NCBI RefSeq assembly: GCF_050320075.1
Contig: NZ_CP190018.1
Length of the DNA stretch: 64,000 bases
Reading direction: 5' to 3' (one strand)
Origin: Escherichia coli
Lineage (GTDB): Bacteria; Pseudomonadota; Gammaproteobacteria; Enterobacterales; Enterobacteriaceae
The stretch's first letter is position 1; every line of letters begins with the position of its first letter. The notes under the pieces were generated by a model, which worked only from the letters and a program-made list of their open reading frames with translations, ran no database searches and was not told the DNA's origin. Below, one piece after another: positions 37,609 to 37,781 of the stretch. The position numbers and the translations under genes were made by a program.

Positions 37609-37737
37609 ATGAATACTAACGTTTTTCGACTGCTCCTGCTGGGAAGCCTGTTCAGCCTTAGCGCCTGTGTGCAGCAAAGCGAAGTGCGACAGATGAAACA
37701 CAGCGTCAGCACGCTGAACCAGGAGATGACGCAACTC
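37609..37737 (+). pseudogene. yajI: yajI lipoprotein gene, 5' fragment (interrupted by IS insertion)
   Basis: MNTNVFRLLLLGSLFSLSACVQQSEVRQMKHSVSTLNQEMTQL then the frame runs into IS-derived sequence and stops at 37797. Confidence 0.8.
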
Positions 37738-37747
37738 ATTGACATCC

Positions 37748-37769
37748 TCCACGCCCTGAAGGACGTGGA
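37748..37769 (-). repeat. Subterminal hairpin of IS605-family element (tnpB-proximal end)
   Basis: tccacg-ccctgaagga-cgtgga: 6-bp stem, 10-nt loop, about 10 nt inside the junction. Confidence 0.7.
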
Positions 37770-37781
37770 TCCCTGCTACGT

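Follow-up and report, generated by a model that had tools for sequence, protein, structure and literature searches.

We consider it likely that a copy of the insertion sequence IS609, which interrupts yajI in Escherichia coli, encodes an RNA-guided TnpB nuclease whose omega-RNA guide would be taken from the adjacent yajI flank, whose TAM would be TTAT and whose homing would at present be latent. The window, i.e. the whole stretch of 64,000 nucleotides that was analysed, contains the E. coli gene order thiL-nusB-ribE-ribD-nrdR-yajI-tsx-yajD-secF. By its sequence, the segment 37739-39486 is an IS609 copy, a 'peel-and-paste' insertion sequence of the IS200/IS605 family with divergent tnpA and tnpB genes (Table 1). 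PGAP labels an 'RNA-guided endonuclease InsQ/TnpB family protein' and a tnpA pseudogene between two yajI fragments. That IS609/InsQ is a putative RNA-guided endonuclease is already part of its annotation, and a guide derived from the flank is already known as the published TnpB model. The yajI copy provides the exact coordinates of element, predicted guide and predicted TAM.

Table 1. Features of the IS609 copy in yajI and of its flanks (positions are those of the window)
Feature	Position	Strand	Remarks
yajI 5' fragment	37609..37738	+	codons 1-43 plus 1 nt
yajI 3' fragment	39487..39896	+	with the 5' fragment yields 179-aa YajI
Predicted omega-RNA guide	37719..37738	-	5'-TGAGTTGCGTCATCTCCTGG-3'; yajI flank immediately 3' of the IS609 RE
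Omega-RNA scaffold candidate	37739..37888	-	final 150 nt of IS609 or more; overlaps tnpB 3' end and RE
Scaffold helix 1	37877-37872/37866-37861	-	
Scaffold helix 2	37855-37851/37818-37814	-	
Scaffold helix 3	37847-37840/37831-37825	-	
Scaffold helix 4	37796-37793/37786-37783	-	
Scaffold helix 5	37769-37760/37757-37748	-	
RE subterminal hairpin	37748..37769	-	TCCACGTCCT-TC-AGGGCGTGGA; CCACGTCCTTCAGGGCGTGG within 37769-37748
tnpB (insQ)	37782..38990	-	402 aa, GTG start, intact
tnpA (Y1 HUH transposase) pseudogene	38998..39486	+	TAA at 39223-39225 (Y76*)
LE subterminal hairpin	39451..39470	-	top strand CCCCGTCCTTCAGGGCGGGG
Predicted TAM / TnpA target 5'-TTAT-3'	39487..39490	-	TTTAT = 39491-39487; flank abutting LE; within YajI N44-K45 codons
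GTTTC, TAM proposed earlier	39492..39496	-	does not adjoin the element; unconserved at other sites

The boundaries of the element follow from aligning the locus both to the uninterrupted yajI of K-12 and to six independent IS609 insertions. They delimit 1748 bp, which is also the length of the K-12 'insertion sequence:IS609' feature. In the alignment with K-12 yajI, the left flank ends at 37738 (…CAACTCA) and the right flank starts at 39487 (ATAAAGAAAC…). From end to end (1-1748), the element shares 98.3-98.7% identity with IS609 at five further loci (ydcL/ydcO, a TetR gene beside ytfB, a DUF1869 gene, yfaY/yfaV and yedK). Its excision in silico (37609-37738 joined to 39487-39896) restores a 540-nt yajI ORF, and the encoded protein equals K-12 YajI except for K45Q and T94A. 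The insertion is scarless: as in the IS200/IS605 family, it is site-specific, lies 3' of a short target and has no target-site duplication. An 'ATC' deletion at the junction, first suggested by the comparison with K-12, was rejected: the difference is a single C/A polymorphism (ATC vs ATA), and empty alleles with the exact TTTAT exist. The exact reconstructed 40-mer of the empty site is carried by 28 genomes, among them Ecol_316, where 2 of 588 flanking positions differ. According to PGAP annotation, the identical insertion sequence is present in 340 of 5426 complete E. coli genomes.

IS609 is inserted precisely 3' of TTAT in yajI, and its active (top) strand is the minus strand of the window. 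In K-12 coordinates, this top strand corresponds to the plus strand at ~432 kb in the right replichore. The plus strand of the right replichore is the lagging-strand template, an orientation expected from the replication bias of the IS200/IS605 family. Judged from the K-12 coordinates and this bias, the yajI copy has the orientation expected for the family.

Six independent E. coli insertion sites were read on the tnpB-sense (top) strand. At all six, TTAT closes the 5' flank (TTTAT at four sites, CTTAT at two) and is followed immediately by CCGGTGCGCCGTAAAACCCCGTCCTTCAGGGCGGGG. At every site, the element terminates with …CCACGTCCTTCAGGGCGTGGAGGATGTCAA, and the sequence after TCAA is unrelated between the sites. 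In the window, the RE reads ...GGAGGATGTCAA on the minus strand and ends at 37739. The 8 nt downstream of the RE hairpin (37747-37740) are GGATGTCA, followed by the terminal A at 37739. This means, the element terminates with ...GTCAA, which makes TCAA (37742-37739) the tetranucleotide of RE cleavage. GGAGGATGTCAA is kept down to ~50% TnpB identity, and the sequence downstream of it diverges immediately. Imperfect subterminal hairpins are found at both ends and terminal inverted repeats at neither, as in other IS200/IS605 elements. A related subfamily in Photorhabdus and Klebsiella pneumoniae (L036, L037, L039-L042, L054) keeps the terminal GGGGGAGGATGTCAA and has a longer RE hairpin, CCCCCTCTTGAGTCACGAAGTGCGAAAGTGGGGG, instead; its LE is different (CTCCAAAGGGTA…) and its flanks are TTAT, TTAC or TAAC.

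At the LE, AAAA (39474-39471), the DNA-guide tetranucleotide, precedes the hairpin. In IS608, the DNA-guide tetranucleotide pairs with the target. Among homologues from other Enterobacterales, AAAA before the LE hairpin goes along with a TTAT flank in 12 of 13 elements and AAAG with TTAC in three of three; the flank abutting the LE is TTAT or TTAC in 11 homologous elements. In addition, the site occupied by IS609 in K-12 is naturally empty in strain CFSAN061763, where it reads GCGCTTTTTAT|TATCGGTTTCTG (TTAT|TATCGG...). Among the cleavage sites of TnpB-bearing IS elements from six species, TTAT at the LE and TCAA at the RE occur most often (PMC9956272). Furthermore, TTAT was used as TAM for an IS609-like TnpB in a 2026 study (Table S2; PMC12781874), in the text of which no result for that TnpB was found. 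As read from the insertion sites, the TAM would be TTAT. The preliminary description of this DNA had combined the same guide with GTTTC as the TAM. Proximity alone, with GTTTC (39496-39492) 5 nt from the LE, favours that assignment. However, TTAT (39490-39487) is the motif that abuts the LE, it is invariant, and the positions equivalent to GTTTC at the five other insertion sites are unrelated (cctgg, gcgct, gcgtt, atgac, ccagg). Moreover, the boundary set by the intact alleles places TTTAT outside the element. We therefore give GTTTC practically no credence, and the yajI copy corrects the predicted TAM from GTTTC to TTAT.

The guide sequence itself had been described exactly: the minus strand reads 5'-TGAGTTGCGTCATCTCCTGG-3' directly beyond the element end that is nearest to tnpB. 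The element end and the orientation had been recognized as well, but the positions were one base off (~37718-37737 with an end at ~37738, compared to the actual 37719-37738 and 37739). A guide length of 20 nt is predicted; if it were as in ISDra2, ~16 nt would be used. A comparison with intact yajI alleles, which had been suggested as a check, confirmed the exact boundary and revealed a 20/20 match in every allele examined (six were read). Allowing up to 3 mismatches, this is the sole match of TGAGTTGCGTCATCTCCTGG in the window, apart from one chance site with 3 mismatches at 45117-45132. Since the guide is the flank by definition, the comparison with chance concerns the boundary, which is exact, and the RNA scaffold, whose covariation lies far above its controls. 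A terminator-like hairpin on the minus strand (37701-37716; CAGCGTGCTGACGCTG, then TGTTTCATCT) starts 2 nt past the 20-nt guide. It is yajI sequence and probably coincidental, and it could affect the 3' end of a read-through transcript.

The guide had also been said to match 'the uninterrupted yajI allele'. The match holds, but there are several such alleles, and they differ at the TAM (TTTAT vs TTGAT). Using a 40-mer centred on the polymorphic base, the intact TTTAT allele (YajI K45) was found in ~1889 and the TTGAT allele (YajI Q45) in ~2030 of 5426 complete E. coli genomes, the latter including K-12 and O157:H7. The polymorphic base lies inside the TAM (39487-39491, YajI codon 45), and the alleles split into TAM-positive and TAM-negative ones. 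By analogy with GstTnpB2, TTGAT alleles probably have no functional TAM, and K-12-type TTGAT alleles may escape cutting. TTTAT and TTGAT alleles both match the guide perfectly and form a natural pair in which the TAM dependence of an endogenous E. coli TnpB could be tested.

For the candidate scaffold, 66 loci encoding TnpB relatives (95% to ~30% identity) were gathered from representative genomes. The RE terminus GGGGAGGATGTCAA is kept in 33 of them, down to ~50% protein identity, with immediate divergence downstream; in these 33 homologues, divergence starts right after ...GATGTCAA. RNAalifold, run on the aligned final 150 nt of 24 homologues, yielded five helices comprising 32 pairs, 19 of which display compensatory double changes. 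Paired cells amount to 95.5%, compared to 42-56% when the partners are slid by 1-3 columns, and none of 500 column shuffles matches the observed values on any measure. The scaffold pairs are intact in the yajI copy. Several pairs are invariant or frequent U-G, which assigns the structure to the tnpB-sense strand. An Rfam scan (E ≤ 1) returned sub-threshold matches only: RAGATH-18 (RF03064; 28.1 vs a gathering threshold of 44.9 bits), HgcC (RF00062; 23.8 vs 50 bits) and sot0042 (RF02656; 17 vs 88 bits). The HgcC alignment runs through …GGAGGAUGUCAA|UGAGUUGCGUCAU (it ends ...GGAGGAUGUCAA|UGAGUUG). All three families are TnpB-associated and tied to tnpB 3' ends. By sequence, the scaffold region resembles RAGATH-18, HgcC and sot0042, but it is no member of these curated families.

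Could the conservation at 37739-37888 reflect only DNA-level signals and coding constraint, with no guide-RNA scaffold at all? Helix 5 coincides with the canonical subterminal DNA hairpin of the RE. It is both a TnpA DNA signal and the last predicted omega-RNA stem, so its covariation is not RNA-specific. The tnpB ORF contains helices 1-3 entirely, and helix 4 (37796-37783) extends over its last codons and stop codon; some conservation therefore comes from coding. Yet helices 1-4, which lie within the coding region or overlap it, show compensatory double changes, and the U-G pairs would turn into C-A on the other strand or in bottom-strand DNA derived from the duplex. In addition, the covariance models of RAGATH-18, HgcC and sot0042 match in part, and the homologous part of ISDra2 forms the reRNA. 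Taken together, a purely DNA- and protein-based origin of this conservation is very improbable.

TnpB is recognized by NCBIfam NF040570 ('guided_TnpB') with 388.9 bits (cutoff 100), and its alignment with ISDra2 TnpB (8bf8/8exa, E = 8e-56) covers the full length. D183, E267 and D363 align with the catalytic residues D191, E278 and D361 of ISDra2 TnpB (RuvC triad), and both CxxC pairs of the zinc finger (C334, C337, C353, C356) are present. Compared to ISDra2 TnpB, ~15 residues are inserted after the catalytic Glu. The divergent start codons of tnpB (GTG, 38990) and tnpA (ATG, 38998) are only 7 nt apart (38991-38997). This means, the promoter of each gene must sit inside the coding sequence of the other. 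A consensus scan detected no promoter for either gene. The only two promoter-like hits, 38176-38204 and 38480-38507 on the plus strand, lie inside tnpB, ~500-800 nt upstream of the tnpA start. A terminator scan found 10 terminator-like sites (2.3 expected), of which nothing is interpretable except the flank hairpin just past the guide.

The Y76* mutation of tnpA (TAC→TAA at codon 76) falls between the HUH motif and the catalytic Tyr. NF033573 matches the two halves on either side of the stop with 71.8 and 57.6 bits (cutoff 55), and the PGAP annotation likewise records an 'internal stop'. Nine E. coli IS609 copies (loci including L003-L009 and L081) were compared for both genes. Stops interrupt tnpA in 5 of 9 copies: Y76* occurs in the window copy and L009, L96* in K-12, L003, L008 and L009. 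The ratio of dN to dS for tnpA is ~1.1. By contrast, tnpB is an intact 402-codon ORF in 9 of 9 copies with a mean pairwise dN/dS of 0.24; for both genes, this is a small sample of non-independent pairs. The analysis thereby documents tnpB intactness and tnpA decay across IS609 copies, and an intact tnpB beside a decaying tnpA fits the general finding that tnpB outlives tnpA. A separate feature of tnpA is that its ORF has no stop inside the element and runs through the LE hairpin into the flank (region 39400-39525), so that a different C-terminal tail would follow in each copy. Such read-through probably explains the PGAP label 'missing C-terminus' on all copies.

With tnpA a pseudogene, excision and hence homing need a transposase from elsewhere. 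The genome of CFSAN061763 is 100% identical to the window over the locus and has a second BLAST match, so that a TnpA acting in trans may exist; the usual second IS609 site (ydcL/ydcO) is empty. That this site is empty in a genome identical at the locus suggests that excision may never occur in this lineage. The empty site between ydcO and ydcL (L083 13190-13240; NZ_CP042899.1 ~2588200-2588234) reads …GCGCTTTTTAT|TATCGGTTTCTGTTAGCG… and is a TTAT-bearing target for the guide of the K-12 copy, with one mismatch at guide position 15. The same strain carries an intact IS200-type tnpA (WP_000502112.1) between yddM and fdnI (L082 12455-12913; NZ_CP042899.1 2532455-2532913).

The decay of tnpA also raises the question whether the copy is an immobile fossil, in which TnpB and/or the RNA is unexpressed or inactive and the 'guide' a functionless flank. 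In favour of a relic speak the tnpA nonsense mutation and the fixation of the insertion in 340 genomes, most with at least 99% identity, which is consistent with vertical inheritance. The promoter scan predicted no sigma-70-like promoter on the minus strand in the region, and a literature search found no omega-RNA expression, cleavage or other activity data for IS609/InsQ. The related HpyTnpB of IS608 was inactive in plasmid interference assays (Meers et al., bioRxiv 10.1101/2023.03.14.532601). Against a relic speak the contrast between the two genes in the nine copies, the presence of all catalytic and zinc-binding residues in TnpB and the intact scaffold pairs of the yajI copy. We regard a relic as unlikely. 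A different role is conceivable, too: with tnpA dead, the intact TnpB and the yajI guide may be retained as a device of allele-specific 'anti-reversion' or drive, a speculative idea to which we assign a small probability. If it were true, the device would cut incoming TTTAT yajI alleles (~35% of E. coli genomes) and spare TTGAT alleles (K-12, O157). The K45/Q45 polymorphism would then split E. coli into targetable and immune yajI alleles, and purifying selection on tnpB, as opposed to neutral decay of tnpA, would reflect a transposase-independent role.

In the reading that we favour, an IS609 TnpB-omega-RNA system with a yajI-flank guide, the 3' region of tnpB mRNA and the RE would form the omega/reRNA scaffold. 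Transcription or processing past the RE end (…GGAGGAUGUCAA) would add ~16-20 nt of yajI flank (UGAGUUGCGUCAUCUCCUGG) as a guide; tnpB-sense RNA running past 37739 would read UGAGUUGCGUCAUCUC.... In the ISDra2 model, an RNA from the tnpB 3' end and the RE likewise carries a flank guide of ~16-20 nt (PMC8612924). The TnpB-omega-RNA complex is predicted to recognize 5'-TTAT|TGAGTTGCGTCATCTCCTGG, present in the donor joint or in any intact TTAT-type yajI allele. The RuvC site would cut this target, and recombination with the occupied copy would restore the element. The occupied site would be immune because TCAA, not TTAT, precedes the target. We infer the 3' extension of the RNA, TAM-dependent cleavage and homing from ISDra2 and Geobacillus TnpB, for which the homing logic has been published (PMC8612924; bioRxiv 10.1101/2023.03.14.532601). 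Homing after excision, as envisaged in the preliminary description, follows this published logic. However, tnpA is a pseudogene, and unless a transposase acts in trans no empty site arises as a substrate. Homing would therefore stay latent unless another source provides TnpA in trans or horizontal transfer brings in an intact allele.

Among known systems, IS609 of K-12 (insQ / yncK, ydcL-ydcO) is the same element as the yajI copy: it measures 1748 bp, is ~98% identical, has tnpA and tnpB in divergent orientation, agrees exactly at both termini (LE and RE), and likewise targets TTAT and terminates at the right end with TCAA. It resides at another locus and has, therefore, another guide (TGAGTTGCG... 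vs TATCGGTTTC...), and its tnpA stop is L96* instead of Y76* in the yajI copy. TnpB-reRNA of ISDra2 from Deinococcus radiodurans (PDB 8bf8/8exa/8h1j; PMC8612924) is a full-length homologue with the same RuvC triad and zinc finger. There, the guide RNA consists of the tnpB 3' end, the RE and the flank, the TAM is the TnpA target at the LE and a homing model applies; for IS609, the same features are predicted. In contrast to ISDra2, the TAM of IS609 would be TTAT and not TTGAT, tnpA and tnpB are divergent and not co-oriented or overlapping, TnpB carries the insertion after the catalytic Glu, and its function is predicted from sequence. TnpB2 of ISGst from Geobacillus stearothermophilus uses TTTAT as TAM, which is the 5-nt motif of yajI; its targeting of the donor joint and the retention of the transposon have been demonstrated, and its cleavage is strongly sensitive to TAM mutations (bioRxiv 10.1101/2023.03.14.532601). 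ISGst TnpB2 differs in its host and its distant sequence, and active TnpA is provided in trans by an autonomous element; for the yajI copy, no active TnpA was identified, and in CFSAN061763 ydcL/ydcO is empty. IS608 from Helicobacter pylori is recognized by hairpins at both ends and a 4-nt guide that pairs with the target. Like IS609, it has subterminal hairpins at both ends, an RE TCAA that ends 10 nt 3' of the hairpin and a 4-nt DNA guide 5' of the LE hairpin, which in IS609 homologues is mirrored by the covariation of AAAA with TTAT and of AAAG with TTAC. Its target is TTAC, whereas IS609 uses TTAT and has a divergent gene arrangement.
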